Shown piece after piece: positions 1 to 21,219 of a DNA stretch of 27,859 bases. The stretch is from a virus (taxonomy: Duplodnaviria; Caudoviricetes). Position 1 is the stretch's first letter. Each line of letters begins with the position of its first letter. The translations under genes were made by a program, and so were the position numbers. The stretch covers positions 1 to 27,859 of IMG/VR virus record IMGVR_UViG_3300033433_000028; one strand, written 5' to 3'. The notes below the pieces were generated by a model. That model saw only the letters and a program-made list of their open reading frames with translations, did no database searches and had not been told where the DNA came from.

Positions 1-21
1 AAAAATACGATTAATAAATAG

Positions 22-556
22 TTACCCGCAATCAGGCTCGGCTCGGCTGCGGTACAATTAAATAGGCGGGCGCAAAGGAGAAAAGTAAATGAGAACCATT
101 GAAGAAAAATATTTGAACGATCCGGAATTCCACTCTTTAGTAGATATGATGTACCATTTGATTGGCACAAAAGATTATTCGCCTTCCGAATTAAGAGAAG
201 CTGCAATGCTTGCGTCTATCAAATTTCAGATGGTAAACGCAAGAAAATACGTTTTTACATATGCGGAAGGCGAAAAGGTAATACATGAAATTGATCGATT
301 AAGGGAGGAAATACAATTAAAGATGCAGCCGATTGCGCCCGCTAAGACAGAGGAATCGCGATGAATAGAGCGAGCCGAGCCAGCGGGCCTTACAGGCCCT
401 TCATTGCGGGTAACGCGAGCGAACTCTTTGCCTTGCTGCCCGTCATGTCCGCCGAGCCTGACAGACGGGCAACAAGTCGAAGTTTGCCATCCTGACACCA
501 TGGCAAAAACAGAATGAACGCGAGTGGTGTCAGGACGGGCAAACCGTTCGCTCGCG
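22..556 (+). mobile_element. Putative integron-like gene cassette 1 (535 bp)
   Basis: Starts at G|TTACCCGCAAT (21-32), the exact reverse complement of ATTGCGGGTAAC (403-414). Contains one gene with an RBS, followed by an AAC...GTT palindrome (412-558). Confidence 0.65.
89..364 (+). CDS. Hypothetical protein (91 aa), cassette 1 cargo
   Basis: AAAGGAG RBS upstream of the ATG; fills the cassette; no recognisable domain. Confidence 0.8.
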   Translation: MRTIEEKYLNDPEFHSLVDMMYHLIGTKDYSPSELREAAMLASIKFQMVNARKYVFTYAEGEKVIHEIDRLREEIQLKMQPIAPAKTEESR

Positions 557-558
557 TT
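412..558. repeat. attC-like branched palindrome 1
   Basis: Outer stem AACGCGAGCGAAC (412-424)/GTTCGCTCGCGTT (546-558) is a perfect 13 bp. It encloses hairpins 432-476 and 482-544. Confidence 0.8.
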
Positions 559-1140
559 GTCCAAAACGACCCCGCCAGCTATGCTGCGGGACGAATTAAA
601 TAGTTTGGCGCTGGAGAAACTTATGGGAATATGCAAAGAGTGTCACGGTCAACCGCTAAGATATGGAATGGCTCCACATCATCACGATATCAAACGAACC
701 GGCTCCATTATAGGAAGCACTGTGCTTGTACCTAAAGAATCTTGGCCTAAAAACTTTTCTCCCGATCCTGAAGAAGAGGGAGCCGGTATTTATACATGTG
801 AGCATTGCAATGGAACTGGCAAAGAACCCTTGGAGCCGTATGATGAAGACGAGTGCCCGCATCAATATCGTTTCGAACATCGAGGATATTTAAGATGCAG
901 AAATTGCGGCGCAGTCTATAATGAATCAACTTGCGAATGGGAAAAAGCGCCAAATGAATAATTTTGGAATCGCAATGAATAGAATAGCTGGCGGGTCGGC
1001 CTTCCAGGCCTTCGTTTTGACCAACGCATCGCGCCGATCGTCGGTCTGGTCGATTACGCACGCGACGTGCGCATCGACCAACCCGTCGCAAGGTGCCACG
1101 CCCACCGAAGCGGTGTGGCGCAGCACCTCTGCGCGATGCG
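557..1140 (+). mobile_element. Putative integron-like gene cassette 2 (584 bp)
   Basis: Starts at G|TTGTCCAAAACGA (556-569), complementary at 12 of 14 positions to TCGTTTTGACCAAC (1012-1025). One gene; same motif layout as cassette 1. Confidence 0.65.
623..961 (+). CDS. Cys-rich putative zinc-binding protein (112 aa), cassette 2 cargo
   Basis: GGAG RBS at 613-616 favours ATG 623 over 524. Motifs CKEC, CEHCNGTG (CxxCxGxG) and CPH...CRNC. Confidence 0.75.
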   Translation: MGICKECHGQPLRYGMAPHHHDIKRTGSIIGSTVLVPKESWPKNFSPDPEEEGAGIYTCEHCNGTGKEPLEPYDEDECPHQYRFEHRGYLRCRNCGAVYNESTCEWEKAPNE

Positions 1141-1142
1141 AT
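1023..1142. repeat. attC-like branched palindrome 2
   Basis: CGCATCGCGC (1025-1034)/GCGCGATGCG (1131-1140) stem encloses hairpins 1047-1080 and 1091-1128. Begins at AAC and ends at GAT. Confidence 0.75.
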
Positions 1143-1173
1143 GTGTCGAAATGGCCCCCTTGAGGAAATTTAA

Positions 1174-1605
1174 ATGAGTGGCGGAATAAAAAGCAAAAGA
1201 TCGGGTGATTTTGGCGAATCCGTTGCTCGCTACGCGCTCAGGGAATTCGGCGTGCGCATGATTGAAAAAGTCAATACTCCATGGAAAGTATTGTGGAAAA
1301 ACGGTCACCCGGCCCAGGCGTTCGTCATTGAAAAGGTTTCCGGCGACTTCATCGGGATCGGTGCGGGTGGCAAGAAGGTTCTTGTCGAAGTGAAATTCCG
1401 GGACAATTGCCTTTCGTTGTCCGACTTTGAAAAACACCAGATCGACGCGCTCGAAGAAAATAATCAGCTCGGCGGGATCTCGCTTGTTGTGTGGGTGACG
1501 CACAAAACGTGGAATATTTACTATTGGCCGTCCATGGTCCTTAAAAAAGGCGCGCCGATCAAACCGGGAGAAAAACAAGGACTACAAATGTCGAGAGAAT
1601 ATTAA
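1174..1605 (+). CDS. RecU-like Holliday junction resolvase (PD-(D/E)XK nuclease)
   Basis: G..FGE N-terminus, GDFIG...LVEVK catalytic motif, and LSDFEKHQIDAL as seen in the RecU family. Confidence 0.75.
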   Translation: MSGGIKSKRSGDFGESVARYALREFGVRMIEKVNTPWKVLWKNGHPAQAFVIEKVSGDFIGIGAGGKKVLVEVKFRDNCLSLSDFEKHQIDALEENNQLGGISLVVWVTHKTWNIYYWPSMVLKKGAPIKPGEKQGLQMSREY

Positions 1606-1625
1606 CATTAACTGAGGAGGTTGCG

Positions 1626-2237
1626 ATGGATTTGAAAGATATGTTCGCTGACGAGAGTATTTGCGTTCGGAAAGCCGACAAAGAACTATTCGTCCCGCTG
1701 GCTGGTGAAGAGCGCGAAGCGGCGGTCACGGATTTGACAGGCGCTATAAAGCGCCGGAGCGACCTGCAGGACCGCAAAAAATCGTTAGACACTTCATTAT
1801 CCGACCAGATCAAAACCGAGGACGGATATATCGTCAACATCGGCGAAAAGCTTCGCGAGGGCGTTCTCCGTAAAATTGAATGCAAGGAATTCTTTTTCTG
1901 GAAAGCCGGAAAAGTTTATACGATCCGCATGGATACCGGGGAAATCATTGGAGAGCGCGCCGTAACCCCCGAGGACGCCCAAACAAAGTCGACCGATATC
2001 GAAGTTCCGACCAGGGAAATCCCCGAAGATTTCAAAACAAAGATCCTTGCACTTGAGGACAAAACCGAAAAGACCGGCGCCGAAGAAACGGATGTTGAGA
2101 TTATCGAAAACATCACGAGCGGGGGCGAAGCGGTCGAGACATCCGACCAGGCCGAACAATCCGGCGGCAATGGCGACGATGGTCCTGTCGATCAAAATTA
2201 TAAATCGGCAGACGAACCGAAAGAAAAAGCGGCATAG
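1626..2237 (+). CDS. Hypothetical phage protein with acidic C-terminal tail
   Basis: GAGGAGG RBS; 203 aa ORF in an operon-like arrangement. Confidence 0.75.
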   Translation: MDLKDMFADESICVRKADKELFVPLAGEEREAAVTDLTGAIKRRSDLQDRKKSLDTSLSDQIKTEDGYIVNIGEKLREGVLRKIECKEFFFWKAGKVYTIRMDTGEIIGERAVTPEDAQTKSTDIEVPTREIPEDFKTKILALEDKTEKTGAEETDVEIIENITSGGEAVETSDQAEQSGGNGDDGPVDQNYKSADEPKEKAA

Positions 2238-2239
2238 AT

Positions 2240-2377
2240 ATGACCGACCGAGAAATAAGGATCGAGTCGATGAAGCCGTTATTTTCCCCGAGGTCTATTA
2301 TGCGATATCTGGACCTTGACGGGAAAGACGAGTCCGTCATCCGAAAATTCCAGAAAGGACCAGAACGTGAAAAATAA
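2240..2377 (+). CDS. Small hypothetical protein (45 aa)
   Basis: Hand-translated MTDREIRIESMKPLF...EREK. Starts 2 nt after the upstream stop and overlaps the next start. Confidence 0.4.
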   Translation: MTDREIRIESMKPLFSPRSIMRYLDLDGKDESVIRKFQKGPEREK

Positions 2378-2600
2378 ATTAGCAGATTTGAACGATCACC
2401 TGTTCGCCCAGCTTGAGCGGCTGAGTGATGAGGAGATCACCAGCGAAAAGCTCGATGCCGAACTCAGTAGAACCGAAGGAATTTGTAAAATTGCCCGACA
2501 CATCATCGATAATGGCCAGCTTGTGCTCGATGCGAACGTCGCCATACAGGAGCATAATACGGGAAGAATTCCGCAACTCGTCGGACCGGTGGAAAAATAA
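2367..2600 (+). CDS. Conserved phage protein (KNKLxDLNxHLFAQLERL type), usual partner of a downstream HNH protein
   Basis: GTG start at 2367 with AAAGGA RBS; recognisable N-terminal motif. Confidence 0.75.
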   Translation: MKNKLADLNDHLFAQLERLSDEEITSEKLDAELSRTEGICKIARHIIDNGQLVLDANVAIQEHNTGRIPQLVGPVEK

Positions 2601-3238
2601 TGAAGGGGAAAAGATTGTTGTTTTCAAAAGAGCAAATCGCTTTCATTAAAAAGTTCTATCGGAAATTTCCTCCCAAATATGTCGCCGAAGGATTAAATGA
2701 ATGCTTCAATTTGGATTTGAAAGAAGGCCAGGTTCGATCGTTCATTCATAATCACGGTATCAAATCGGGTCGGAACTGCTGTTTTCAAAAAAACCATCTG
2801 CCATGGAACTACGGAACCAGGGGAATGGGAATTTGCAAAGGGAACTCCGGAAACTTTAAGAAAGGGCACATCTCGCAAAATCGGAAGCCGCTTTGGAGCG
2901 AGCGGATTGATCCTGACGGATATGTCTGGATCAAGGTCCAGAAGCACGATCCCAATACCGGATCCCCGACGCGGTACATGCTCAAGCATGCCTGGGTTTG
3001 GGAAAAAGTATACGGTAAACCTCCCAAGGGGTCGAATATTGTTTTTAAAGACGGGAATCGGACCAATTGCGATATTAAAAATCTTATTCTCGTTTCTGAT
3101 GCCGAATTAGCGGTAATGAATAGGCATGAAGGCTTTGGCGCTGCGCCTGCAGAACTTAAAGAGTCGATAATCATGTTGACAAAATTAAAAGTAAAAGCGT
3201 CAACCTTAAACCGGGCGAATTCGGGAAGGACTCTATGA
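2600..3238 (+). CDS. HNH endonuclease-like protein (HNH_3 type)
   Basis: HAWVWE...GKPPKG.NIVFKDGNRTNCDIKNL motif; FQKNHLPWN and FKKGH repeats. Confidence 0.8.
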   Translation: MKGKRLLFSKEQIAFIKKFYRKFPPKYVAEGLNECFNLDLKEGQVRSFIHNHGIKSGRNCCFQKNHLPWNYGTRGMGICKGNSGNFKKGHISQNRKPLWSERIDPDGYVWIKVQKHDPNTGSPTRYMLKHAWVWEKVYGKPPKGSNIVFKDGNRTNCDIKNLILVSDAELAVMNRHEGFGAAPAELKESIIMLTKLKVKASTLNRANSGRTL

Positions 3239-7279: not shown

Positions 7280-7394
7280 AAAATATTCCAAAATTATTCT
7301 GCGTTGATTTCGCTGCTACTCTACGGAATAGTACCCCATTATGATCAATAAATACTGAGTTATACTTTAAGGCGTCTTGTTCTGGTTTCTGGTT

Positions 7395-7428
7395 GCCGTG
7401 TCCTCTTTGTCGGGGACGCGGCTTTTTT
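7395..7428 (+). terminator. Intrinsic terminator-like hairpin directly upstream of terS
   Basis: GCCGTGTCCTC/GGGGACGCGGC 11-bp stem (two G-U pairs) followed by TTTTTT. Confidence 0.65.
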
Positions 7429-7439
7429 ACAGGAAAACC

Positions 7440-8081
7440 ATGGAAAACCAAGAAAACACGCCGAAAAAAGATCAAATCCCCGAAGAAATTATTGTTTTAT
7501 CCCCGAAAAGAGAGCGTTTTTGCCAGGAATATATCATTGATTTGAACGGCAAACAAGCCGCGATACGTTCCGGGTATTCTGAAAAATCTGCCGAAGTAAC
7601 CGCATCAAGACTGTTAAGCGATGTTAAGGTCAAAGCCAGAATCGCTCAATTGATGGCCGAACGCGCAAAGCGCTGCGAAGTAAAACAAGATGATGTCATC
7701 GCCGAGTTAAAGCGTCTCGGCTTTTCCGATATGCGGAATCTCGCCGAATGGAATAGCGTTCTTGTAAAACTCAAGGATTCTTCGGAAATATCCGATTCGG
7801 ACGCCGCCTGTGTCGAAAGCGTTTCTCAAACCGTTTCAAAAGATGGCGGATCACTTTCCATAAAGCTGCATTCAAAAACGAAGGCGCTCGAATTGCTTAC
7901 CCGGCACCTCGGCATGTTGCACGATAAAATCGACCACACCACCAAGGGCAAGGAACTCGCGCAGCCGCCGGTTTTTCAAATAATCGACGACAAAACAAAG
8001 GCGCAGTGTGAGCAGCTCATCGCCGGAGGCGGGCGCGAATCAGAAGCGCCATTAACAGCGGCGCCGCCCGATGGAAAATGA
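7440..8081 (+). CDS. terS: Terminase small subunit
   Basis: RFCQEYIIDLNGKQAAIRSGYSEKSAEVTASRLL and KTKALELLTRHLGM motifs; AGGA RBS before ATG 7440. Confidence 0.93.
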   Translation: MENQENTPKKDQIPEEIIVLSPKRERFCQEYIIDLNGKQAAIRSGYSEKSAEVTASRLLSDVKVKARIAQLMAERAKRCEVKQDDVIAELKRLGFSDMRNLAEWNSVLVKLKDSSEISDSDAACVESVSQTVSKDGGSLSIKLHSKTKALELLTRHLGMLHDKIDHTTKGKELAQPPVFQIIDDKTKAQCEQLIAGGGRESEAPLTAAPPDGK

Positions 8082-9262
8082 TAACCAAAACAACTAACGT
8101 TTTCACACGGAACCTTGATGCTTACCTCAATAAAAAAATCCGCCGCGCAATCAACCAGGGCGGCACGTCAAGCTCGAAGACCTTCTCGATCATTCAGCTT
8201 CTTATTTTCATCGCCGAATACGCAAAACGCGCAATCATCATTTCCGTCGTTTCCGAATCCGTTCCGCATCTTAAGCGCGGCTGCCTGCGGGATTTCAGAG
8301 CGATCATGGGCGAGCGGTTCGAGGAAAAGCGATGGAACAAAACAGACTCGATTTACACCTTTCCGAACGGAACACAATTTGAATTTTTCAGCGCGGATAA
8401 TTCCGCGAAGTGCCGGGGCGGCCGCCGCGACATTCTTTTCATTAACGAGTGCAACAACCTCTCGTATGATACATATATGGAGCTTGATATCCGGACACGG
8501 CTTTTCACGTTCCTCGATTTCAACCCGGTCGCCGAATTCTGGTGTCACGAGCAGGTCATCCCTTACGAAGAAAATGCTTTCATTCATTCGACATATCTTG
8601 ATGCACTTCATGTCCTCGAACCAGCGGTCGTCAAGAATATCGAATCTAATAAAGACAAGGACCCGAACTGGTGGAACGTCTACGGCTTGGGAAACGTCGG
8701 AAAGATCGAGGGCCTCGTCTATCCATTCTTCACGATCATTGACCAGTTTCCGACGCTTTCCAGCAATATCGAAGTATTCGGTCTCGATTTCGGTTTCTCG
8801 GTGGACCCCACGGCGCTCGTTAAAAATTGGATACGCGAAAAGAACCTATACTCCGAGGAACTCATCTATCAACGGGGCATGGACAACAATCAAATCAGCG
8901 TCAAGATGCAAGAACTCGGCATGCGGAAATCTCACGACGTTATCGTCGCCGACAATTCCGAACCGAAAAGTATTTCCGAGGTCGCCGGGTATGGATGGAA
9001 TATCATCGGCGTCGAAAAGAAGCCCGGAAGCGTCGAGTTCGGACATCAGAAAGTCAATCAGTACAAGCAGTATTGGCTAAAGTCAAGCACGAACTGTATA
9101 AAAGAGCAGCGGAATTTTATGTACATCAAAGATAAAAACGGCAAGTTGACAGAAAAGACGACCCATTATTTCAGCCACGGCATGGACGCGCGGCGATATG
9201 CAATCCAGGGCCTGGGGAATGTAACCGGATACAACCTTTCCGCGATGGGATCACTCGATTAA
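8078..9262 (+). CDS. terL: Terminase large subunit, PBSX family
   Basis: Walker A variant QGGTSSSKT, Walker B ILFINE, nuclease motifs GLDFGFSVDP and HGMDARRY. Confidence 0.95.
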   Translation: MITKTTNVFTRNLDAYLNKKIRRAINQGGTSSSKTFSIIQLLIFIAEYAKRAIIISVVSESVPHLKRGCLRDFRAIMGERFEEKRWNKTDSIYTFPNGTQFEFFSADNSAKCRGGRRDILFINECNNLSYDTYMELDIRTRLFTFLDFNPVAEFWCHEQVIPYEENAFIHSTYLDALHVLEPAVVKNIESNKDKDPNWWNVYGLGNVGKIEGLVYPFFTIIDQFPTLSSNIEVFGLDFGFSVDPTALVKNWIREKNLYSEELIYQRGMDNNQISVKMQELGMRKSHDVIVADNSEPKSISEVAGYGWNIIGVEKKPGSVEFGHQKVNQYKQYWLKSSTNCIKEQRNFMYIKDKNGKLTEKTTHYFSHGMDARRYAIQGLGNVTGYNLSAMGSLD

Positions 9263-9274
9263 AAAGGAATTTAT

Positions 9275-10819
9275 ATGGCAAAAAAAATTGAAAACAAAAC
9301 AATGCTCGATGGATGGGGGAACGTGATAACGGGCCTCGGAGTCAAGGGGCGCGACCGCAAGGAAGACACTATGTTTTCCTCAGAGTTTCGCCTTTCTGAA
9401 ATGATATGCCGCAATCTGTTCACGTACTCGGGCCTTGGCCGCCGTATCTGCGAAATGCCGGTTGCAGACGCTTTCCGGAAATGGTTTACCATTGAAGGAG
9501 ACACGGACAACACGATTCAGAACGAAGTCAAGCGCCTTGCGGTCAAACAGGAATTGACTCGCGCCTGGGCATGGTCGCGTTGCTATGGCGGAGCGTTGAT
9601 TGTGGTATCTGCGAACGATGGGCGATTTCTCGACGAACCTCTCGACGAAGCAAGTATTAGGGATATCGAAAAGCTTCGGGTGTACCACAGATGGCGGACC
9701 TCCCGCATGTCATACTATCTCGATCCGGACGATCCGAAATACGGAGAAACCGAATGTTTCATGATCGCGCCGAATCAACCGTTTCAAACTTCGTTTTCCG
9801 TTCACGAATCGCGTTGCCTCATTTTCGACGGCGTGGACGTTGCGCCGGAAATTCGTATCGGGAATCAGTGGTGGGGCGACTCTGTTTTCCAGGCGATATA
9901 CCAGCGCCTCCGCGGCCTTGGTGAGAGCTATTTGAACGTCGAGCATATTATCGGGGAATTTTTGTTGATGATCATGAAAATCAAGGGGCTTTCTCAAAAA
10001 CTCGCCGAGAAAAAAGAGGACGAGGTTGTCAATCGCATCATGATGAACAATCTTACGCGCCACCTCATGGGGGGTTATGCCATCGACGCCGACGGCGAGG
10101 ACGCGACCAGGATAAGTGCGACGACAACCGGCCTGCGGGACCTCATGGAAGTGCTCATGATGGGCCTCTCCGCCGACGTGCAAATCCCCATCAGAAAGCT
10201 ATTCGGTTCACCGATCCAGGCAGCCGGACTTGGCAAGGATGGCGACCAGGAAACGAACGATTATAACGAGTGGGTCATCGGCCAGCGCGACAAACACGCG
10301 CAGAACCCGACCGAACGACTCGTCAAACTCCTCATGCTGCAAAAGGCCGGGCCGTTCCACGGGAAAGAACTGCCGAACTGGAAAATAATGTGGAACGCAA
10401 TCCAGGAGGATTCACTATCTACGCAACTCGATAATAAGAAAAAGCAATCGGAAATCGACCGCACTCATTGGGAAATGGGAGTCATGGATGAAAATGAAAT
10501 CCGGAAAAACCGCTTCGGCGGCGACTCGTATTCTCACGATACGGTTTTGAAAGGGAAGGCGCCGGGGAAGACGAGCGAGGAAGATGATCCGGGTGCGGTG
10601 ACCCACGGGGATTCCCTGGATGATGAACAAAAAGCCGCCATGGAGCACGAAAACAAGCTCGGCGCGGGGGCGGAGAAAAGGAAAAAACTTCCTGCGCATA
10701 AGCGCGGATCGGTTGTCATGGCTGAATTTGAAAGGGGCACCCTACACTCAGGCAACGGCGCAATAGTGACGAGTAGGGAACAGGCGATTGCGATAGCGGC
10801 AAACGAAAGCAAGGATTGA
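9275..10819 (+). CDS. Portal protein (DUF1073-like) with C-terminal DUF6496-like extension
   Basis: Follows terL; DGWGNVITGLG, WSRCYGGA, VHESR and IPIRKLFG motifs. Confidence 0.88.
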   Translation: MAKKIENKTMLDGWGNVITGLGVKGRDRKEDTMFSSEFRLSEMICRNLFTYSGLGRRICEMPVADAFRKWFTIEGDTDNTIQNEVKRLAVKQELTRAWAWSRCYGGALIVVSANDGRFLDEPLDEASIRDIEKLRVYHRWRTSRMSYYLDPDDPKYGETECFMIAPNQPFQTSFSVHESRCLIFDGVDVAPEIRIGNQWWGDSVFQAIYQRLRGLGESYLNVEHIIGEFLLMIMKIKGLSQKLAEKKEDEVVNRIMMNNLTRHLMGGYAIDADGEDATRISATTTGLRDLMEVLMMGLSADVQIPIRKLFGSPIQAAGLGKDGDQETNDYNEWVIGQRDKHAQNPTERLVKLLMLQKAGPFHGKELPNWKIMWNAIQEDSLSTQLDNKKKQSEIDRTHWEMGVMDENEIRKNRFGGDSYSHDTVLKGKAPGKTSEEDDPGAVTHGDSLDDEQKAAMEHENKLGAGAEKRKKLPAHKRGSVVMAEFERGTLHSGNGAIVTSREQAIAIAANESKD

Positions 10820-11465: not shown

Positions 11466-12418
11466 ACTCCCTCGACCTCCATTCCCTCCGCCGCAAGCGC
11501 CCTCCAAAGCGCTTTCCCCGCACGCAGGTGATGCGGCTGCCATCCCGCGTATGGAGCGACTACGGAGCCGCCATCAAAGAACGGATCATCGATAAGTGGC
11601 GCGAAGCAACGCAGCGCATTATTATCGACCGGCTGCCAGCAATCGAACGCATGGTTGAATTCGAAAGGCCCGGCCCCATGCGAGCGGACGCTTGGCCGGA
11701 TGAAATGGGCCACCAGCTCGTTGAACTCAATTCTGAATACGATGCGCTTGCGAAACAGTCGGCGGATATCGCCGCCGGAACATTCAACGCCGTGAATGGC
11801 GTATCCCATCAACAATGGTACGCCGTGGCCAAGCGCGTCATGGGTGTCGATCTTTTTTCGTTCGAGCCATGGCTGGAATCAGAGTCAAAGGCGTTCATCC
11901 ACCTCAATACGGACCTCATCACGAAAATAAAAAGTGAAGTCCAATCCGACGTTTCCCGCGTTGTCATGGGCGGCTTCCGGGAAGGGAAGCGCCACGAGAC
12001 GATTGCCAAGGAGCTGCTAAGCGGAACCGACCTCGAACCGGGCGTGTTCAACAAGGCCGAAACACGTGCGGAGCTGGTCGCCCGCGATCAAACAATGAAA
12101 CTCTACGGCGACCTCGCGCAAAAGCGGCAGGAAGGCGCGGGACTCACACTTTACATCTGGCGAACACTTGAAGACGAGCGCGTCGTCGGCAATCCGGACG
12201 GGAAATATCCGAAAGGCTCGCCCGGCCATCACGATCATTTTGTCATGGATGGCAAAGTCTGCAAATGGAATGACCCGACCGTGTACGCAAATACTGTCGA
12301 ACGAGCAATTGCGGGGGATTGGATTAAAAGAAATAAAAGTATGCCGCAAGTCCACCCAGGCGTCGAGATTCAAGACCGGTGTTATGCGGAGCCTGTTTTT
12401 CAAACGTTGTTTCAATAG
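11462..12418 (+). CDS. Minor head morphogenesis protein (Mu gpF / SPP1 gp7 family)
   Basis: RAELVARDQ, YIWRTLEDERV and HPG...RCYAEP motifs; position after the portal. Confidence 0.9.
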   Translation: MNSLDLHSLRRKRPPKRFPRTQVMRLPSRVWSDYGAAIKERIIDKWREATQRIIIDRLPAIERMVEFERPGPMRADAWPDEMGHQLVELNSEYDALAKQSADIAAGTFNAVNGVSHQQWYAVAKRVMGVDLFSFEPWLESESKAFIHLNTDLITKIKSEVQSDVSRVVMGGFREGKRHETIAKELLSGTDLEPGVFNKAETRAELVARDQTMKLYGDLAQKRQEGAGLTLYIWRTLEDERVVGNPDGKYPKGSPGHHDHFVMDGKVCKWNDPTVYANTVERAIAGDWIKRNKSMPQVHPGVEIQDRCYAEPVFQTLFQ

Positions 12419-12423
12419 CTATT

Positions 12424-13890
12424 ATGTCAATACCTAAAATTCACCATATGCTCTGGACAAGCAATAACGACTTCGTGCCAAAGTTTCACGATTTCCGCCT
12501 ATCTTGGATGCGGAACAATCCGGAGTGGAATTTCAAGCTATGGCGGCTTAAAGATTTGCCGTACGATCAATTTCCCGGAAAATGCAACGAGCTTTTATTT
12601 TCCGAAAAGCTTCATTGGGTTTTAAAATCCGACATTGCCCGCTGGCTTATCATTTGGCTTTATGGCGGCGTATACTCGGACACGGATGTCGAATGCCTTA
12701 AGCCAATGGACCGCTTTCTCGATGATAAGGCCTTTTGTGCACATAGCATTACTCCGAATATCGTGGGCAATGCCGTTTTCGGCGGCATATCCGGATATCA
12801 GCTTTTTCTCGATATCGCCTGCGCGGAAGCCGAAAAAATAAGCAGCAACATTGAGGGCGCAAACAAAACTATCGTTGATTATGGTGTCAACCTCGCCGGG
12901 AAAATGCTTTTACAATGTGAAAAGATTTATCCGGCAGAATACTTTTATCCGGTTTCCTGGGGACAACGCAGAGAGGGACGGGCAAGGCCCGCAAGCGACT
13001 ACCCCGACGCTTATTGTATGCACCATTGGAGCGGCATGGATGAAGACGGCTGGTACTCCGAAACGATAGGGGCGGGAAGGCGCGTGCGTAGTATTCGGCA
13101 ACAAGCTGAGCCGGCGGCGACTTACGTGTTTTACGGGAAAAATACCCCGCAGGCCATGAAAAAAGTTCCCGAAAGCAGGCGCGCGGTTTCTTGTCGTCGA
13201 TTAGTCGCAATGGAAGAGCCAAAGCCAATATTGGGCGGAGCGATAATTCCGAAGATTATTCATCGGATATGGATAGGCGGAAAACCTATTGACGAAAAAA
13301 CGGAAAAATACATTGAATCTCAAAAGGTAATTTGCCGCGACTATCATCATTTTTTATGGACAGATGAAAAAATAAAAGAGATTCATGAATTTATTTATCC
13401 CTCGTCCTTGCAAATGCTAAATGACGACAGATTGAACCCCGTGATAGGGTCCGATATTCTCCGCTATGAATTGTTGCGTCTTTTCGGGGGAATCTATCTT
13501 GATACCGATGTTGAAATATTAAAGTCGTTCGACGAGTTTCTAGTCATGCCTTTCTTTTGCGGCATGGAAAGCAAGGATAAAATAGGCTCGGCGATACTTG
13601 GATCAATACCATATTACCCCGTGTGCTCTGAAATGTCGAAAAAGATTTATGCCAATTATCTTGACAGGGGAATTCCAAAAAACTCTTATCAACAACTGAT
13701 TTTTGGAGGGCCGTATCTGCTTACCGATATCATAAAAAACCATCCGTCGATTCGCCCATTTCCCCATGAATATTTTTATCATAGCAATAAACCGGCTGAA
13801 AATATAACGCTTCATTTTTTTTACGGGGGAAAAGACAAAAACGGATGGACGCACCAACTGAGGCAACCAAATAGATTTAACCCTTTATGA
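12424..13890 (+). CDS. Double-domain DXD glycosyltransferase (GT32/OCH1-like, 488 aa)
   Basis: Two copies of IPKIxH..W...SDIxR..L...GGxYxDTDV; start reassigned to MSIPKI at 12424. Confidence 0.9.
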   Translation: MSIPKIHHMLWTSNNDFVPKFHDFRLSWMRNNPEWNFKLWRLKDLPYDQFPGKCNELLFSEKLHWVLKSDIARWLIIWLYGGVYSDTDVECLKPMDRFLDDKAFCAHSITPNIVGNAVFGGISGYQLFLDIACAEAEKISSNIEGANKTIVDYGVNLAGKMLLQCEKIYPAEYFYPVSWGQRREGRARPASDYPDAYCMHHWSGMDEDGWYSETIGAGRRVRSIRQQAEPAATYVFYGKNTPQAMKKVPESRRAVSCRRLVAMEEPKPILGGAIIPKIIHRIWIGGKPIDEKTEKYIESQKVICRDYHHFLWTDEKIKEIHEFIYPSSLQMLNDDRLNPVIGSDILRYELLRLFGGIYLDTDVEILKSFDEFLVMPFFCGMESKDKIGSAILGSIPYYPVCSEMSKKIYANYLDRGIPKNSYQQLIFGGPYLLTDIIKNHPSIRPFPHEYFYHSNKPAENITLHFFYGGKDKNGWTHQLRQPNRFNPL

Positions 13891-14645
13891 GCATTCCGAA
13901 AATCATCCATCAAGTATGGGTCGGCGATTTCTTCGACGAGCAGCTTGTTATTTACGCCTCGGAGGTATCGCTATACTGCGAGATAAATGGATATGATTAT
14001 TATTTTTGGAATTTAAATAGAAGCGGCGATGAGCTTTTCGTAAAACACGATCTTTCCTATGGACTTTGTAAAATATCCGATCTTAACAAAAACAACACTG
14101 TTTTAGAAATGATAAAAGACGAGAAATTACCCGCCGTAATCAAGGCCGATATTTTGAGATTCATGATTTTGGAAAGGCTTGGAGGATTTTATGTTGATGT
14201 CGATATGATAATCTTAAAACCCCTCGAAGGGTTTTTACAGATGGAGTATGTTTGTGGACATGAGAAATGGACGAACCTTGTTTGTACCGGATTTCTCGGT
14301 TCGCCCTCCGGGTCATTGGTCAATACCGAGGCAATATGTTCCATTGTCCATTCTTACGAAAAGGTTAAGATTGAAAACCGATACCCCGAAAACGTCGACG
14401 AAGTGATACTATTCAGCGGCCCGGCGATGTTCACGGAACTCATTAAAAAGTTTCCTTATATAGAACCGTTTCCGGTCGAAACGTTTCACGCGTGCCCGGT
14501 TCCCGAATTGAAAAAACAATTTACACTGCATTATTTCGCGGGTTCAAAAAAAGGCGGGTGGGCCGGGGATGGATGCAAGGGAAAAAAATGTTCAATATGC
14601 GAAAACAGGAAAGAATGTAGTATTATCCTTGAGGAAAGAAAATAA
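13887..14645 (+). CDS. DXD glycosyltransferase (GT32/OCH1-like) with Cys-rich tail
   Basis: MSIPKIIHQVW, KADILR, GGFYVDVD and SGP motifs; C-terminal CxxxxCxxCxxxxxC. Confidence 0.88.
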   Translation: MSIPKIIHQVWVGDFFDEQLVIYASEVSLYCEINGYDYYFWNLNRSGDELFVKHDLSYGLCKISDLNKNNTVLEMIKDEKLPAVIKADILRFMILERLGGFYVDVDMIILKPLEGFLQMEYVCGHEKWTNLVCTGFLGSPSGSLVNTEAICSIVHSYEKVKIENRYPENVDEVILFSGPAMFTELIKKFPYIEPFPVETFHACPVPELKKQFTLHYFAGSKKGGWAGDGCKGKKCSICENRKECSIILEERK

Positions 14646-15574
14646 TGGAAACGATATTACCCGTTAAAAATATAAAAACATTATGGATAACCCTTTCGAA
14701 TCGATGCAACCATCGGTGCGCCTTTTGTTACCAGACGGACTTTGAGGCGATTCTATCGAAAATAGTTTTTAAAAATATAGAACCGATTTATCCGACGATT
14801 TCCAATTGTCTTTTACAGGGAGGCGAAGTCACCGTTTTGGGGATGACGCGCCCATTCTGCGATGAAATACTTTCCGTTAACAAATCGGTAAAGTTTGACA
14901 TTGTGACAAACGGCCATGAATTCGGCGAGGAATGGCAATCGTTTTTTATCGAACATGGCCGGGCGGTCCATTTTTCAATCAACGCCTCGAAAGACTACAC
15001 CTATCAGAAAATAACCCGCGGCGGAAATTGGGAAAGACTTCTGAGCAATATTTGGTCAATGGTTGAATTGAAAAAAGAGAGCGGATTATCGGAGCCCATT
15101 ATACGGGCGAGCATGGTCGTCACCGACGACAACGTGGAGGAAATCTACGAATTTGCCAGAATGTGCGAATTTATGGGTTTAGATGCTTGTAATATTACCT
15201 ATGATTGTGCGCATTTTCCTAAAAATGCGGAGCGCGTGATCGCCGAAGCGACCAAACTGCAAGATGTTAAAATCGTTCATCCCTCGTGGCCAAGCGCTCT
15301 ATTAAGCCGGGCGCGCGGAATTCCGACGCGACGAGAAAGACAAATGCACAACAACGAATTTATTTGCCAAAACGCTTTTGAAAGCCTCATGGTCGATATA
15401 GATGGGCGCGCCCGCTTTTGCTGCCTTATGGACACCCGCATTGGCGATCTTTCGATAAACACAATCGAGGAGGTATGGAATAGCGAAGAGGCTCAAAGAA
15501 TTCGCCGCTGCTTTACTGAAAATAAATACCGGGAAGCCGGTTGCGTCGTTGAGCGGTGCATGGCATTTAACTAA
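14645..15574 (+). CDS. Radical SAM protein with SPASM/twitch-like domain
   Basis: CNHRCAFC, QGGE and TNG motifs; C-terminal C...FCC...IGDL...IEEVWNS...C...C. Confidence 0.9.
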   Translation: METILPVKNIKTLWITLSNRCNHRCAFCYQTDFEAILSKIVFKNIEPIYPTISNCLLQGGEVTVLGMTRPFCDEILSVNKSVKFDIVTNGHEFGEEWQSFFIEHGRAVHFSINASKDYTYQKITRGGNWERLLSNIWSMVELKKESGLSEPIIRASMVVTDDNVEEIYEFARMCEFMGLDACNITYDCAHFPKNAERVIAEATKLQDVKIVHPSWPSALLSRARGIPTRRERQMHNNEFICQNAFESLMVDIDGRARFCCLMDTRIGDLSINTIEEVWNSEEAQRIRRCFTENKYREAGCVVERCMAFN

Positions 15575-15582
15575 GGAGAATT

Positions 15583-16122
15583 ATGGAAGGAATTGAAAAA
15601 TTAATAGAGGTAATAAGTCAGGGGTCACCCGCTTGGTTTATGTCATGTAAAGAAAGGATCTTGCTCGTTAGTCTTTTGCATATTTTAAAGCCGAAAGTTG
15701 TCATTGAGCTCGGCGTATTGAATGGGGGCTTTACAAAGCATATCGCGGAAATAGCCGATGAAATTTATTGCGTCGACGTGAATAAAATTGAGGGACTTCC
15801 CGAGAATGTGAAATCTTTTACAATGCTGACCGACACCTTTTTCGAACAGCACCCCGATTTAAAAGCCGATATGATAATCGTAGATGCGGGACACCAAGAA
15901 GAATTTGCTTATCGGGATATGAAAAACAGCATTAATAGAGGGAGGGTGATTTTGATGCACGATACCGGTACCGCCTTTACGCGCCGGGGATACGCCAAGG
16001 CCATTCAGGAAAATATTGATAACATAGTTTATTATGATCTCGACTTCATTGAAAAGCAGGAATTCGAGACGAAGCAGTCGGTTGAGATTTGGGGCGGTAT
16101 CGGGATAGTGATAAAAAAATGA
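15583..16122 (+). CDS. Class I SAM-dependent methyltransferase (Methyltransf_24-like)
   Basis: VIELGVLNGG, IIVDAGH and ILMHDT motifs; AAGGAG RBS. Confidence 0.85.
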   Translation: MEGIEKLIEVISQGSPAWFMSCKERILLVSLLHILKPKVVIELGVLNGGFTKHIAEIADEIYCVDVNKIEGLPENVKSFTMLTDTFFEQHPDLKADMIIVDAGHQEEFAYRDMKNSINRGRVILMHDTGTAFTRRGYAKAIQENIDNIVYYDLDFIEKQEFETKQSVEIWGGIGIVIKK

Positions 16123-16446: not shown

Positions 16447-17682
16447 ATGCCGAATATCATCAAAGACGCGCAGAGGATCGATAAGGCCCTCATCATCGGC
16501 AGCATCAAGAAAACCGACGACGGATATTTGCAGGGCAACGCCGTTGTTGCTCGCTCCGGAATCCTCGAATACTACGAAAACGGAAAAGTGGTCCGCGAGC
16601 TCGTGACGGATGAAGAGCTCGCCAAAGCCGATTCTCTCCTGACCCTCAAAATGAAGCCTGTCACGAATGGACACCCCTCGGTTAAGGTTGTTACCTCCCA
16701 AAACGTGAAACAGTTTCAAGTCGGATTCACGGGTGAAAATGTTGTCTGCGAAGACGGTCGCCTGGTTACCCCGATCACGATAAACGACAATGTTGCCATC
16801 ACCGATGTCGAGGCCAACAAACGCAGGCAGCTTTCCTGCGGGTATATCTGCGACGAGATCGAAGAGCCTGGCGAATGGAACGGACAGCCCTACGACCGCA
16901 AGCAGACGAACCGCCGATACAACCACGTCGCCCTCTGTGACCATGCCCGCGCCGGTTCGGTCGCGTCGCTTCACCTCGACGCCTCCGACGTTTACGAATG
17001 TGGAGAGCCGGATTTTAAAGAAAACAAGAAACAAAATAAAATCGACAATCAACCTCAGAAAAGGAGCAGACCCATGCCCGTTACAATAAAAATTGATGGA
17101 ATCGACTACCCGGAGCAGGCCCCGGAAGTGGCAAAGAGAATCGAAAAGCTCGATGCCGATATCAAAACGGCCCAGGCGGCGACAGCGGCAATCCAGACGA
17201 AGCTCGACGCAATGACCGCCGACCGCGATGCGACGAAAGTCAAGCTCGATGCGGCCAATGTGGAGATCGCGACGTTCCCCACAAAAGTCGTGACCGCCTC
17301 GAAGGCCCGCGCCGATCTCGTTGCGATCGCAAAGCCACATCTCGACAAAGCGGACCAGGAAAAGATCGATACGTTGACCGATGCCCAGATCAAGAAGGCC
17401 GTCGCCCTGAAAGCCTTCCCGGCCAGCAAGGTTAAAATCGACGCGGTCAAGGAAGACGCTCTCGATGCCGTCAACACCTGGTTCGACGCAGCAATCGAAC
17501 ACCTGAAAAACGATGTCATCGATACGGCTGCCCGGCAGAACCGGCAGGATTCCGTAGGTGTCGACAAGGTCCACGTCGACGGTTGCCAATGCGACGCCTG
17601 CGCGAATGCGGGAAAATCCGAGGACATCAATGAGCATTGGAAAAAGAACAAAGAGGATTCGTTCGCAAAAAAAGGTAAGTAG
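16447..17682 (+). CDS. Prohead protease/scaffold protein (DUF2213-like)
   Basis: DGYL, ARSGILEY, PVTNGHP, QLSCGY and NHVAL..HARAG motifs; Ala/Lys-rich coiled-coil C-terminal half. Confidence 0.9.
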   Translation: MPNIIKDAQRIDKALIIGSIKKTDDGYLQGNAVVARSGILEYYENGKVVRELVTDEELAKADSLLTLKMKPVTNGHPSVKVVTSQNVKQFQVGFTGENVVCEDGRLVTPITINDNVAITDVEANKRRQLSCGYICDEIEEPGEWNGQPYDRKQTNRRYNHVALCDHARAGSVASLHLDASDVYECGEPDFKENKKQNKIDNQPQKRSRPMPVTIKIDGIDYPEQAPEVAKRIEKLDADIKTAQAATAAIQTKLDAMTADRDATKVKLDAANVEIATFPTKVVTASKARADLVAIAKPHLDKADQEKIDTLTDAQIKKAVALKAFPASKVKIDAVKEDALDAVNTWFDAAIEHLKNDVIDTAARQNRQDSVGVDKVHVDGCQCDACANAGKSEDINEHWKKNKEDSFAKKGK

Positions 17683-17753
17683 GACCGGACACTAAAACCA
17701 GGAACAAGAACTTTAACTAATAGCAATAGAAACCTTAAAAGGAGTGATATAAA

Positions 17754-18578
17754 ATGAACATCCCTCAAACATCTTACGCGATGTACTTCACCCAGGCAAT
17801 TCTCGGAATGCAGGCGCTGGCCTCCGAAGTTGCGCGAAAAATTTCCCGCACGGCTGCCGGCATTATCTATTACGGCCGGGCCGTGATCCAGAGCCGATTG
17901 TATGACAGCGTGTGCCGCCTCCCGCGGGCGAATAAATTTACCATCACGGTCACCGGCTCGACGATGAGCGCCGGCAGCATGGTTTCCGCTATCACACATG
18001 GAACCATCGCAAACGGCGAGGTTGCGGCCAGCACGTCCATAACCACGGTCACTACCGCTTTCACCTCCAACCTTGCAAACACGATGATCCAGCATGCTGC
18101 CGATATCGCAGCAGCTATGGAGGACTGCTTTACGTGCGTGCGATCATCCGCAACAATCGTTTATATTGGCGATTGTGAGGATATTACAGCAGTCACGACA
18201 TCATTTACCAGTCCCGGCTCCGGCGACGATGCCGCGGCGACCGCAGCAATCACGACCGCCGATGTAGCCGCCGACCTTCTTGGCCTCGCATACTTGACCC
18301 ATAACCGCCAACAGCAGTTGACCACCGGCTACACCTATTTCGAGGACAAGGAGCCGGTCAACATTTGTCAGGGTGGAACGATTTGGGTTTATGGCGAGGA
18401 AGCATTCGGCCCTGCAGATGCGCTATACGTCCGACTGATAACCAATAGCACCAAGTACGCGGGCTACATCGGGAAATCAAGCGACTCCTCGAAATGCGTG
18501 GCCCTTACCGGCGCAAAGGCGGGGACAACAATCTCAGCAGCCGGAATTGTGCCGGTCACGGTCAACTGGCCTCAGTAA
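17754..18578 (+). CDS. Putative capsid cement/decoration protein
   Basis: Lies between protease and capsid genes; I.YGRAV and VNICQGGTIWV...LYVR motifs; Ala/Thr-rich central insert. Confidence 0.7.
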   Translation: MNIPQTSYAMYFTQAILGMQALASEVARKISRTAAGIIYYGRAVIQSRLYDSVCRLPRANKFTITVTGSTMSAGSMVSAITHGTIANGEVAASTSITTVTTAFTSNLANTMIQHAADIAAAMEDCFTCVRSSATIVYIGDCEDITAVTTSFTSPGSGDDAAATAAITTADVAADLLGLAYLTHNRQQQLTTGYTYFEDKEPVNICQGGTIWVYGEEAFGPADALYVRLITNSTKYAGYIGKSSDSSKCVALTGAKAGTTISAAGIVPVTVNWPQ

Positions 18579-18650
18579 TCAAACCGGAAAGCGTGGATAT
18601 TAAAAACAAGAACCATTAACAAAATGAAAATTTAACAAAAGAGGTCAAAT

Positions 18651-19742
18651 ATGCCTTTCAAAATCATCAAAGTCGACGGACAGAACCGGACGGTCAGGGA
18701 CTTCGACCGCGTTGGCGGCGCAAAGTTCGCAATGGATGCCATTGACGCAAATCTTTCGGTGTTCTTCCAACGCCAGTTGGAATTCATCGAAAACGACCTG
18801 AACTTCGTCGAGTACGGCGAGCTCAAGTCGTTCAAACACATTCCCATCGAATCGCGCGGCGGCGACAACCTGTGGTACACCTGGCGCTTGTTCGACAAGG
18901 TCGGCAAGTGGAAAATCAGCGGTGAAGACGCGGACGACGTTCCGGAAGTCAACATTATGGGCGCCGAATTGCCGGTCCCGATCCGCTGGCTGACCGGCGG
19001 GTTCAAGTACAACATCAAGGAGCTCCAGAACGGCAAACAGGCGTCGGCAAACTATCCGAACCAGCCCTCTCTCCAGATCGAGCTCCAGAAGGCAAAGGCA
19101 TGCTATGAGGCATATCAACAGCTCGTCGACCAGATTGCCTGGTTTGCCGATCCCGCGTCCAAGGAATACGCGGGCCTCACCGGCGTGTTCTACAATTCGT
19201 ATATCAGCACGGTCGCCGCGGCTGCCGGTACGCATAACTCCAATACCAAAACGAACTGGTTCAACAGTTCCGGAGTTGTGCAGAAAGACCCGCTCGACAT
19301 TCTCGCCGACCTGAACGCGATGCTGACCTACATCTGCAACATTACCCTTGACCGGTATGCCGCGGACACGATCCTCATGCCCATCTGGCATTATAACGCC
19401 CTCGTCAATACGCCTCTGTCATCAGCGTATCCGCTGCTCACGATTATGCAGCGGTTCCGCGAAGACCATCCTGAGATCAAGATGGTCGATAAGCTCGTGA
19501 ACGCCGAGAGCGTACCTGCCGGCGGAAACATCGCGACCGCGAGCGACATTATCCTCGCGTACAAGAAGGACCCGGATGTCTGCAAGCTGGTTCTTCCCCG
19601 GACGTATACGATGATGCCCGTCCAGGAACGAGGGTTCAACTACATCGTTCCGTGCTACGCGACGACCGCGGGCGTGATCACGAAGAAACCGAAAGCGATG
19701 TGCATGCTCACCGGGACGTCCCTGGCACATGTCGGATCGTAA
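18651..19742 (+). CDS. Major capsid protein (DUF2184-like, HK97 fold)
   Basis: FFQRQLEFIE, DVPEV, YNIKELQ, AADTILMP, AYKKDP and TAGV motifs; size and position. Confidence 0.9.
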   Translation: MPFKIIKVDGQNRTVRDFDRVGGAKFAMDAIDANLSVFFQRQLEFIENDLNFVEYGELKSFKHIPIESRGGDNLWYTWRLFDKVGKWKISGEDADDVPEVNIMGAELPVPIRWLTGGFKYNIKELQNGKQASANYPNQPSLQIELQKAKACYEAYQQLVDQIAWFADPASKEYAGLTGVFYNSYISTVAAAAGTHNSNTKTNWFNSSGVVQKDPLDILADLNAMLTYICNITLDRYAADTILMPIWHYNALVNTPLSSAYPLLTIMQRFREDHPEIKMVDKLVNAESVPAGGNIATASDIILAYKKDPDVCKLVLPRTYTMMPVQERGFNYIVPCYATTAGVITKKPKAMCMLTGTSLAHVGS

Positions 19743-19769
19743 CCGAAAGGACGGTATAAGGCGAATGTA

Positions 19770-19798
19770 GCGGGCGGCAAAAGGACCGCCCGCGTTTT
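19770..19798 (+). terminator. Terminator after the major capsid gene
   Basis: GCGGGCGG/CCGCCCGC perfect 8-bp stem followed by GTTTT. Confidence 0.65.
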
Positions 19799-19824
19799 AA
19801 AACTCAAATCAAACGGAGGATCTC

Positions 19825-20292
19825 ATGATTATCAATCGCAGGACCCCGAACGATCACCAGATCGAGGGTTTCACGTTTCACCCCGGCGCCCAGTTCGTCG
19901 CCGACGATTTCTATCGCTCCAAACTCGAAAAAAACACCGATTTCAAAGCGCAACTTAAGGCGCGGCTCATGGTCATCGATGAGCCGCCGGAAGAGTTGTC
20001 GAAGGACCTACTCAAACCCGGCAAGGAAGGCAAGCTCCCTGATGTGAAAAAATCACTGGCCGAAACAGTTGTCGCGCTTCCGGAAGAGCGGGCGATCGCG
20101 ATAATTCGAGACATCGTCGACGGCAAGGACCTTAAAGAAATCATTCGGCTCGACAAGCGGAGCAAGGTCGTCGAGGCTGCGGAAAAACAGATCGAGGAGC
20201 GACAAGGAACAATGGACGGCATGGCTCCGAAGCTCCCGAAAACGCATCCCGGAAACATGGTTATCAACGATCCGAACAAGGACATGGATTAA
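19825..20292 (+). CDS. Hypothetical head-associated protein
   Basis: GGAGG RBS; position between the capsid and connector genes. Confidence 0.75.
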   Translation: MIINRRTPNDHQIEGFTFHPGAQFVADDFYRSKLEKNTDFKAQLKARLMVIDEPPEELSKDLLKPGKEGKLPDVKKSLAETVVALPEERAIAIIRDIVDGKDLKEIIRLDKRSKVVEAAEKQIEERQGTMDGMAPKLPKTHPGNMVINDPNKDMD

Positions 20293-20684
20293 TGAGCGTT
20301 TCCGCACTCATCGTCGCGATTGCGCCTGCGTATGCAGCCGACACGCGGCTTGCCACCTTTACGACGATCGCAACGGGGCAAACAAGCAGGGCGCGGTTCG
20401 GGGAAAATTACGAATACGCGATCGCGCTGCGAGTTTGTCACATGATCGCGCGCAACCCGATAGCCGGTCCGGGGACTTCCGGAGCCGTTACCAGCGCTAC
20501 GGAAAAAAGTGTTTCGCAATCGTATTCGGTTCCGCAGGATTTGCAAAAACGGTACGGGGATCTGTGCAGTACTCCCTACGGCGCGCAGTTGGCGGGTTTG
20601 ATCGACGGGAATATTGTCGCGCATCTTGCGGTCGGGGGTGGCGGAACGGATACGCTGGCCGGAAATCAGGGAAACGACATATGA
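20292..20684 (+). CDS. Head-tail connector protein (DUF4054-like)
   Basis: ALRVCHM, GAVTSATEKSVSQSY and STPYG motifs. Confidence 0.85.
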   Translation: MSVSALIVAIAPAYAADTRLATFTTIATGQTSRARFGENYEYAIALRVCHMIARNPIAGPGTSGAVTSATEKSVSQSYSVPQDLQKRYGDLCSTPYGAQLAGLIDGNIVAHLAVGGGGTDTLAGNQGNDI

Positions 20685-20685
20685 T

Positions 20686-21219
20686 ATGTTGCGGGCCAAA
20701 GTTGAAATCATCGAGAAGGATACCGGATATAGCAAACTGAAAGACGCATTGCTCCGGTTGTCGGGTGGATATGTCAAGGTGGGATTTCCCGAGGGCAAAG
20801 CGCCGGGAAGTCCGGGCGATCCGGGGAAGGCCAGGAAAAAAGGTAAGCCGAAAAAACCCTGGGACAATATGAGCGAAGTGGCTCGCGTCGCCACTTGGAA
20901 TGAGTTCGGAGTCCCGGCAAAAAACATTCCGTCGAGGCCATATTTTAGAGAAGCCGTTGACGGAAATCGGGAAGCGCTCAAGGAATTTAAGGGTGATATT
21001 TATAAGCAGGTTTTACAGGGGAAAATTACTCCCCACCAAGCGCTCGAATTGATCGGACTCTGGATGCAAAACAAAATCAGGGAATCGATTTTAAAGGGAG
21101 GTTGGATTGCAAATGCGGAAAGAACGAAGCGGGCCAAGGACTCGACAAGGCCGCTTATCGATACCGGGCAAATGATTAATTCTTTGAATTTTGTAAATAG
21201 CCTGACGAAAGAAAAATAA
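20686..21219 (+). CDS. Neck/tail completion protein
   Basis: VKVGFPE, ATWNEFG..NIPSRPYFR and PLIDTGQMINS motifs; start reassigned to 20686. Confidence 0.85.
   Translation: MLRAKVEIIEKDTGYSKLKDALLRLSGGYVKVGFPEGKAPGSPGDPGKARKKGKPKKPWDNMSEVARVATWNEFGVPAKNIPSRPYFREAVDGNREALKEFKGDIYKQVLQGKITPHQALELIGLWMQNKIRESILKGGWIANAERTKRAKDSTRPLIDTGQMINSLNFVNSLTKEK

Follow-up and report, generated by a model that had tools for sequence, protein, structure and literature searches.

The window analysed here is the whole 27,859-base contig of a tailed phage, and the runs that contain its sequence are peat and soil metagenomes; none of those listed is an RNA run, which carries no information on expression. Genes for a RecU-like resolvase, HNH, ParB, terminase, portal, capsid and tail proteins, assigned with Pfam and PHROG, lie 3' of an array of two cassette-like units that starts 20 bases after the contig start. 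No tyrosine recombinase is encoded among the ORFs of the window contig, and the recombinase gene of the array presumably lies just upstream of the contig start. Promoter-like sites in 1-1400 number one, against 1.5 expected by chance. The features of the array are as follows, with P1, P2 and P3 denoting three nested pairs of complementary arms from the outside inwards.

1-23, plus strand: left half of an attI-like primary insertion site, crossover between G21 and T22
21-32, plus strand: unit 1, 5' arm of P1, begins with GTT; 12/12 pairs with 403-414
35-45, plus strand: unit 1, 5' arm of P2; 11/11 pairs with 371-381
46-65, plus strand: unit 1, 5' loop motif, a short helix and then an AT-rich stretch with a terminal TAG
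66-75, plus strand: unit 1, 5' arm of P3, GCGC at its inner end, adjoins the ribosome-binding site; 10/10 pairs with 333-342
89-364, plus strand: cargo gene 1, 91 aa, crosses the 3' arm of P3 and stops within the 3' motif
333-381, plus strand: unit 1, 3' frame with P3 (333-342), motif (352-369) and P2 (371-381)
385-399, plus strand: unit 1, side hairpin, predicted by folding to form a three-way junction between P1 and P2
403-414, plus strand: unit 1, 3' arm of P1, with the AAC end
412-558, unstranded: site 1, attC-like, from AAC to GTT, stem 415-424/546-555 fully paired, two terminal hairpins (Y)
556-612, plus strand: unit 2, 5' frame with P1 (556-569), P2 (571-582), loop motif (583-603) and P3 (604-612)
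623-961, plus strand: cargo gene 2, 112 aa, Cys/His-rich, last codons within the 3' arm of P3
946-1025, plus strand: unit 2, 3' frame with P3 (946-954), motif (966-983), P2 (984-995), side hairpin (998-1010) and P1 (1012-1025)
1023-1142, unstranded: site 2, Y-shaped and attC-like, stem 1026-1034/1131-1139, also present on a third cassette
1140-1152, plus strand: degenerate right half-site in sequence (GAT for GTT), putative end of the array
1174-1605, plus strand: RecU-like Holliday junction resolvase (Pfam RecU, PHROG 843), the first ordinary phage gene past the array

The six arm pairs reported in the preliminary description are all found in place, and Watson-Crick counts confirm them, with 12/12, 11/11 and 10/10 pairs for P1, P2 and P3 of unit 1 and 12/14, 12/12 and 9/9 for those of unit 2; the four conserved motif stretches and both side hairpins also read as described. 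The motif stretches contain, in addition, a fourth short helix, TGCG/CGCR. A circle of unit 1 would have close to the 280 nt outside its gene that had been proposed (278 non-cargo bases, approximately 195 of them paired), but its predicted fold is branched by the Y end and the side hairpin and is not the single long hairpin envisaged. The folding z-scores are -5.98 for unit 1 (none of 100 shuffles as good) and -3.03 for unit 2 (one of 100). End-to-end pairing energies reach -41.6 and -28.9 kcal/mol respectively, whereas 27 ordinary genes from this contig average -6.3 kcal/mol and none goes below -11.6 kcal/mol. Arms, motifs and side hairpins are genuine features, well beyond what chance would produce. 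Both units have GTT at the start and AAC at the end, and at sites 1 and 2 the stem begins directly after AAC without an unpaired spacer. Cargo gene 1 belongs to no Pfam or NCBIfam family at cut-off, while cargo gene 2 matches PHROG 5457, of unknown function (E 2.7e-07), and has one relative, which is 61% identical.

Natural rearrangements of the array are visible in metagenome runs. Contigs of four runs were aligned to 1-3000 and those of X1, X2, X3 and X6 to 1-1000, where none came from X6, and two joints are seen, in the three peat runs X1-X3; X2 and X3 are filed under studies other than that of X1, which may be the source run of the window. The attI-like sequence 1-23 leads into unit 1 in contigs of X1 and X2, which also carry the window's own order (1-50 and 1-138), and into another cassette of 359 nt in X2. 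This X2 contig runs from 1-23 through 339 foreign bases into 1009-1035 and represents a third cassette at the first position, equipped with the 3' arm of P1 and site 2 of unit 2. A 283-nt contig of X3 comprises 97 foreign bases followed by 1009-1139 and then by 21-75, and in a contig of X1 position 1139 continues into 21, the G of G^TT being the single ambiguous base, so that site 2 is joined to position 21 in both runs. The joint contigs are of low depth (2.4-5.4), and two of the joint sides are shorter than 30 bases (23 and 29). The third cassette does not have the side hairpin of unit 2; in X3, the 30 foreign bases displayed ahead of 1009 fold into another side hairpin, of approximately 7 bp. 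As the joints of the third cassette are found together with the original order of the window, two forms of the array exist side by side, one of them with an additional first cassette, and the junction lies at G^TT. The connection to cassette recombination made in the preliminary description is thereby borne out in DNA contigs, since the third cassette has been either acquired or lost ahead of unit 1, precisely at G^TT. Like an attI, which serves the integrase as insertion point and receives new cassettes, position 21 carries the third cassette in X2 and X3, and the 1139-to-21 joint corresponds to a G^TT/AAC crossover. A circle of units 1 and 2 was considered as the source of this joint and is ruled out in X3, where the bases before 1009 are foreign; the X1 joint contig is too short to tell such a circle from the linear order. 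No circular cassette was seen in the contigs, and the linear order in X3 accounts for the 1139-to-21 joint.

Relatives of the array were sought in phages and in bacterial genomes. A metagenome scan for the 3' motif yielded two real loci out of 113, namely the window's own record (L124) and a further contig, L045. Motif scans of viral contigs found the architecture in 0/3, 0/12 and 0/10 loci and returned chance matches only, the window's RecU and ParB retrieved no viral relatives, and window positions 1-1200 gave three matches to cultured phages, all at chance level. L045 carries a Y site and two complete cassettes, and a third in part. At 1465-158 (minus strand) its last site is shortened, and immediately after it come a prophage-type integrase and a tRNA-like piece; the L045 array abuts an integration module. 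The 421-aa recombinase of L045 was considered as the array enzyme and rejected, as the 94% relative found in L139 lies ahead of a tRNA-like piece and is distinct from the enzyme of the L139 array. Used as a query, the prophage integrase next to the L045 array found five genome matches, all in Fibrobacterota, as well as L139.

L139 is a 44-kb phage that has ParB, ASCH and other genes in common with the window. Its positions 16849-21209 share replication-region genes with 7377-10819 of the window and the terminase/portal region is without detected similarity, a mosaic relationship. In L139 a 284-aa tyrosine recombinase is followed by a G^TT, 27 bases past its stop, and then by nine co-oriented cassettes. 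L151 has the same layout, with an enzyme that is 40% identical and a G^TT 43 nt past the stop. The L139 recombinase has no match in cultured phages at 1e-30. Enzyme alignment at 1e-60 identified related enzymes in 35 of 296 Fibrobacterota genomes; in these 296 genomes the single L139 protein gave no match at 1e-55, the window DNA gave three weak short matches, and a 12-base pattern was uninformative as a search key for Fibrobacterota. Twenty of the 42 listed host enzyme places, picked for the length of the surrounding sequence, were examined, and in 13 of these 20 regions a cassette starts at most 260 nt from the recombinase. Judging from these relatives, the host of the window phage probably belongs to the Fibrobacterota.

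The three-stem frame is thus found around unrelated genes in three other phage contigs (L045, L139 and L151) and in arrays of Fibrobacterota genomes, and each cassette of the window, L045, L139 and L151 holds one co-oriented gene. The closest case concerns window unit 2, L045 cassette B and L139 cassette 6, in which a near-identical frame surrounds three unrelated genes (112, 88 and 61 aa): the frames are 72-83% identical and no pair of cargoes aligns better than E 0.05. In the 5' frame of unit 2 (556-612) the identity to L139 cassette 6 is 83% over 47 nt, and in its 3' frame (946-1025) it is 77% to L045 cassette B and 72% to L139 cassette 6. R1, a sequence model, recovered six training sites and one weak match from 53 sources, and two weak matches (E about 0.008) with no convincing copy from 81 host-class genomes; the motif subtype of the window is therefore known from phage-type contigs only. 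In this subtype the small AA/CA loop is replaced by a continuous P1 plus side hairpin, which goes together with fully paired Y sites. An unpaired spacer is present in some cassettes of L139, L045 and L151.

Several smaller observations concern the internal layout of the cassettes. The cargo genes mostly have no stop inside P3; they exit via the 3' arms and stop at varied points of the frame or site (333-364 and 946-961 in the window, and cassettes of L045 and L139). The heptamer at 14-20, before the attI-like G^TT, equals the heptamer before P3 (59-65 and 597-603) and recurs in L139 cassettes 7 and 8, and TAG precedes P3 in most phage cassettes. The heptamer could be an inner recombination core, two-frame stop codons or chance. 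In cassettes 1 and 2 of the host locus L274 (G041) each loop strand forms its own small hairpin, which replaces P3 or stands beside it, and cassette 1 has a perfect P2 of 19 bp. Eight further viral contigs (L179, L188, L195, L196, L157, L202, L209 and L212) carry cassette arrays upstream of short Xer-type recombinases. These eight have terminal arms of 8-10 bp and no inner arms, and their enzymes measure 266-277 aa where whole. A P2-type helix occurs in none of 13 cassettes beside short enzymes in other phages, all with a P1 of 8-10 bp and picked by a detector that needs P1.

The preliminary description had proposed that a single-stranded fold, holding the gene in the loop, is under selection, and compensatory changes in the homologues agree with it. 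Of the 148 cells in five complete window-type frames, 143 are paired, and 21 of 30 positions show at least two Watson-Crick pair types, with registers set by hand and partners taken as the best match. The pairing of cassette ends amounts to 23-42 bp, divided among three or four stems. A cassette's own ends are its best partners in 11 of 16 phage cassettes and not in the other five, and in both exceptions of the window type the own ends rank second, behind a closely related frame. Among hosts, an inner arm of at least 9 bp is found in 9/13 cassettes versus 4/156 non-cognate pairs, counts from which 4 of 17 units with a P1 under 6 of 8 are excluded. P2 is present in 12 of 16 phage cassettes and in 13 of 18 host cassettes (absent in four and five; one nested duplicate was dropped from the host set and two L276 units were added). 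It begins at base 12 in 17/25, mostly directly behind a small AA/CA loop, and most cassettes start with GTT followed by six bases and AA or AT. P3 has a G+C content of 71-79% and contains GCGC in 8/12 phage and 6/13 host cassettes, leaving 11/25 without it.

Mismatches in the stems carry information on the strand that folds. In the P1 zone and site stems A.C exceeds G.T on the top strand by 17:4 in phages and 28:6 in hosts, an excess that in the P1 zone is largely due to one conserved position; in the site stems taken separately the ratios are 9:3 and 14:6. Such an A.C excess on the top strand means wobble on the bottom strand, as would be expected for bottom-strand DNA sites, and by this sequence proxy the bottom strand appears to be preferred. 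The P2 arms comprise 319 Watson-Crick pairs, 1 G.T, 0 A.C and 4 other, a purity that is biased upward because P2 is by definition the longest Watson-Crick run. A P2 nearly free of wobble would suit DNA or copying better than RNA. At the helix ends of the inner arms in 16 phage cassettes G.T outnumbers A.C by 15 to 6 (Fisher p 0.0016 versus the outer zone); in host cassettes the ratio is 3:2 and the wobble bias of the phages is not repeated. The loops are 35-56% A on the top strand, and both this and the top-strand wobble at the inner helix ends fit an RNA fold. In predicted folds all arms co-form on either DNA strand, and the AAC/GTT triplet at site 1 is shared between partners (0.76-0.85 versus 0.1-0.2).

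Since the window is without a recombinase, the link to an enzyme is drawn from its relatives. The arrays of Fibrobacterota, L139 and L151 follow a co-oriented Xer-type tyrosine recombinase that does not have the integron-integrase insertion. The best solved match of the L139 enzyme is an archaeal Xer-like protein (E 7.6e-39) and its best NCBIfam match is XerA, under the cut-off of that family. It scores 137 against TIGR02249, the cut-off of which is 265, and aligns with the solved integron integrase 2a3v in two pieces with approximately 40 residues missing. The IntI-specific insertion (intI_Cterm) is likewise absent from the enzymes of the relatives, and the spacing from GKG to HxLRH is 53-59 residues in all 39 listed frames of host and phage relatives. 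In a midpoint-rooted tree of 50 proteins, which includes no IntI, the L139 and L151 enzymes group together (99/95) and with the host array enzymes (96/86), while six enzymes of arrays with P1 only form a separate branch. From these alignments the array enzyme is likely to be of a non-IntI type. Many relatives of the enzyme (L230-L259; P0081, P0083, P0090, P0119, P0127) have an N-terminal extension of some 120-220 residues with no Pfam match.

The units are very probably cassettes of an integron-like system. The preferred reading, given a probability of roughly 0.55, is that they are swappable cassettes, with ends complementary to each other in three nested stems, and that a short Xer-type recombinase moves them by cutting at G^TT. 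The arm of an Xer binding site is approximately 11 bases long. P1 is probably a binding arm, which would have been lengthened from about 7 to 9-14 bp, would be read on the bottom strand and would restore the 11-base arm in duplex form. Once the DNA is single-stranded, the stems of the sites and P1 would abut end to end with no unpaired base between them, and the shared AAC/GTT triplet could switch partner. Whether P2 and P3 are a DNA clamp is evenly balanced; in that role they would keep both crossover points of one cassette close to each other, also in host cassettes of up to 2.9 kb, and one pair of strand exchanges would then free a closed, largely paired circle, ready for insertion at the attI-like site. 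A clamp of this kind, if true, would explain the dispensability of the IntI insertion. P2 and P3 are not needed by every short enzyme, as P1-only arrays exist beside such enzymes. A tentative and rather doubtful extension is that Fibrobacterota and their phages have a further integron-type system that does not depend on IntI, in which the cassette strand would fold itself into a four-way junction, a plain Xer-type enzyme would resolve it and the frame would act as a reloadable chassis; if true, such a chassis would expose how cassettes arise.

The features assigned here to DNA have also been weighed as properties of RNA. The main alternative, possible if unlikely, is that the units are indeed cassettes but that P2, P3 and the purine-rich loops act on the sense-strand RNA, as a clamp on the message for processing by a double-strand RNase, in translation control or as a template for new cassettes. 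The 15:6 top-strand wobble bias at the inner helix ends of phage cassettes and the A-rich top-strand loops would agree with this, as would the position of P3, which in both window units opens beside the ribosome-binding site and closes over the last codons, and which in L139 cassette 8 covers the ribosome-binding site itself. However, the bias is absent in hosts (3:2) and several of the phage counts represent homologous positions, the scanned window ORFs include no reverse transcriptase family, and P2 has one G.T in 324 positions, below the share of roughly one in ten that is usual in RNA helices. Far less credible is the suggestion of the preliminary description that the conserved loops could form a catalytic RNA, that is, a split self-cleaving or circularising ribozyme around each gene. 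Motifs of 18-21 nt are common to both window units and lie inside a nested fold, but they vary in the homologues, where an alignment of six homologous 3' halves has no more than 15 invariant columns out of 104, with four of these at the AAC end, and no convincing copy occurs in the 81 host-class genomes, whose frames keep the stems without the motifs. The Rfam screen envisaged at the outset matched no described family: Rfam 15 gave no match in the window at gathering thresholds and none in 1-1200 at E values up to 1, and on the L139 region it gave a sub-threshold tRNA piece only. In addition, the joints come from runs that are listed, by a guess, as DNA.

The inner arms might instead be a footprint of cassette building with no present job, left when one arm was copied from the other or when a gene dropped into the centre of a palindrome with duplication of GCGC. 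This is improbable, more so than a role in RNA. It would account for the near-identical frame around three unrelated genes, for a third cassette that combines the 3' arm of P1 and site 2 of unit 2 with a different side hairpin, and for the GCGC of many P3 arms; yet at 71-79% G+C this tetramer is often expected by chance and 11 of 25 cassettes do not have it, the host data weaken the idea of duplication, no empty frame was found among the parsed cassettes, and the compensatory changes in related frames point to continued selection. It is less probable still, and indeed very unlikely, that these are ordinary integron cassettes with unusual attC sites, served by a canonical IntI whose gene would lie upstream or in the host. 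The G^TT crossover is that of integrons, the window's own enzyme is not on the contig, and phage-borne integrons and integrase-less arrays have been published (PMC9892861). Against this, wherever the enzyme of a related array is visible, it is a short recombinase (53-59 residues from GKG to HxLRH), and the window sites are paired from AAC inward without an unpaired central spacer.

Under the preferred reading of swappable cassettes moved by an Xer-type enzyme, the system resembles integrons in its tandem, co-oriented one-gene cassettes, in the insertion point beside a tyrosine recombinase and in the G^TT/AAC crossover, which in integrons is defined at G^TT (PMC4792948). The folded end sites with bottom-strand wobble are likewise shared with integrons, including the inverted-integrase group. 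It differs in that the enzyme does not have the IntI-specific insertion, in that the end pairing extends over 23-42 bp in three or four stems instead of about 7 bp, and in that the window sites are Y-ended with no unpaired central spacer; the R and L boxes, unpaired central spacer and extrahelical bases of an attC are not found together in them. The system is therefore integron-like in its working but departs from integrons in two defining characters, the IntI insertion and, in the window, the canonical shape of attC. Insertion-less enzymes beside fewer than three attC sites were judged not to be IntI by Cury et al. (PMC4889954), whereas nine cassettes lie behind the L139 enzyme. The insertion has been described as 'not fully conserved' in an integron-like subgroup (Smyshlyaev et al., PMC8138268), and the clade of the L139 enzyme may accordingly sit inside that subgroup. 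With XerA, XerC and XerD the array enzyme shares size and domain layout, but it heads cassette arrays and would act on folded single-stranded sites rather than on a chromosome dimer site. Qi et al. (2023; PMC9892861) reported phage genomes with cassette arrays, of which some have no integrase; these phage integrons and CALINs were found with canonical attC models and recombined by IntI1, and the available text of that report makes no mention of long inner arms or of a non-IntI enzyme. A literature search, conducted mostly outside subscription journals and supplements, found no description of this architecture.

Integron surveys rely on the IntI insertion and on canonical attC models, and active arrays behind insertion-less enzymes would be an overlooked branch of bacterial and phage gene capture. 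Cassette formation has been called 'largely unknown' (PMC5371416), and a single frame around three unrelated genes, in which the inner edge of the arms sets the boundary of the cargo, provides a concrete substrate on which to test it. The system is noteworthy in being active in nature, tied to an identifiable clade of enzymes and suited to making cassette formation testable.

Two minor observations were made in the remainder of the window. Positions 12379-16122, between a head morphogenesis gene and the next capsid genes, encode two DXD glycosyltransferases, a radical SAM/SPASM protein and a methyltransferase, possibly a module for virion or DNA glycosylation. At 25175-25746, within the gene for a 489-aa protein with a neck terminator domain, there are seven copies of a coding repeat at a spacing of 60 bases.
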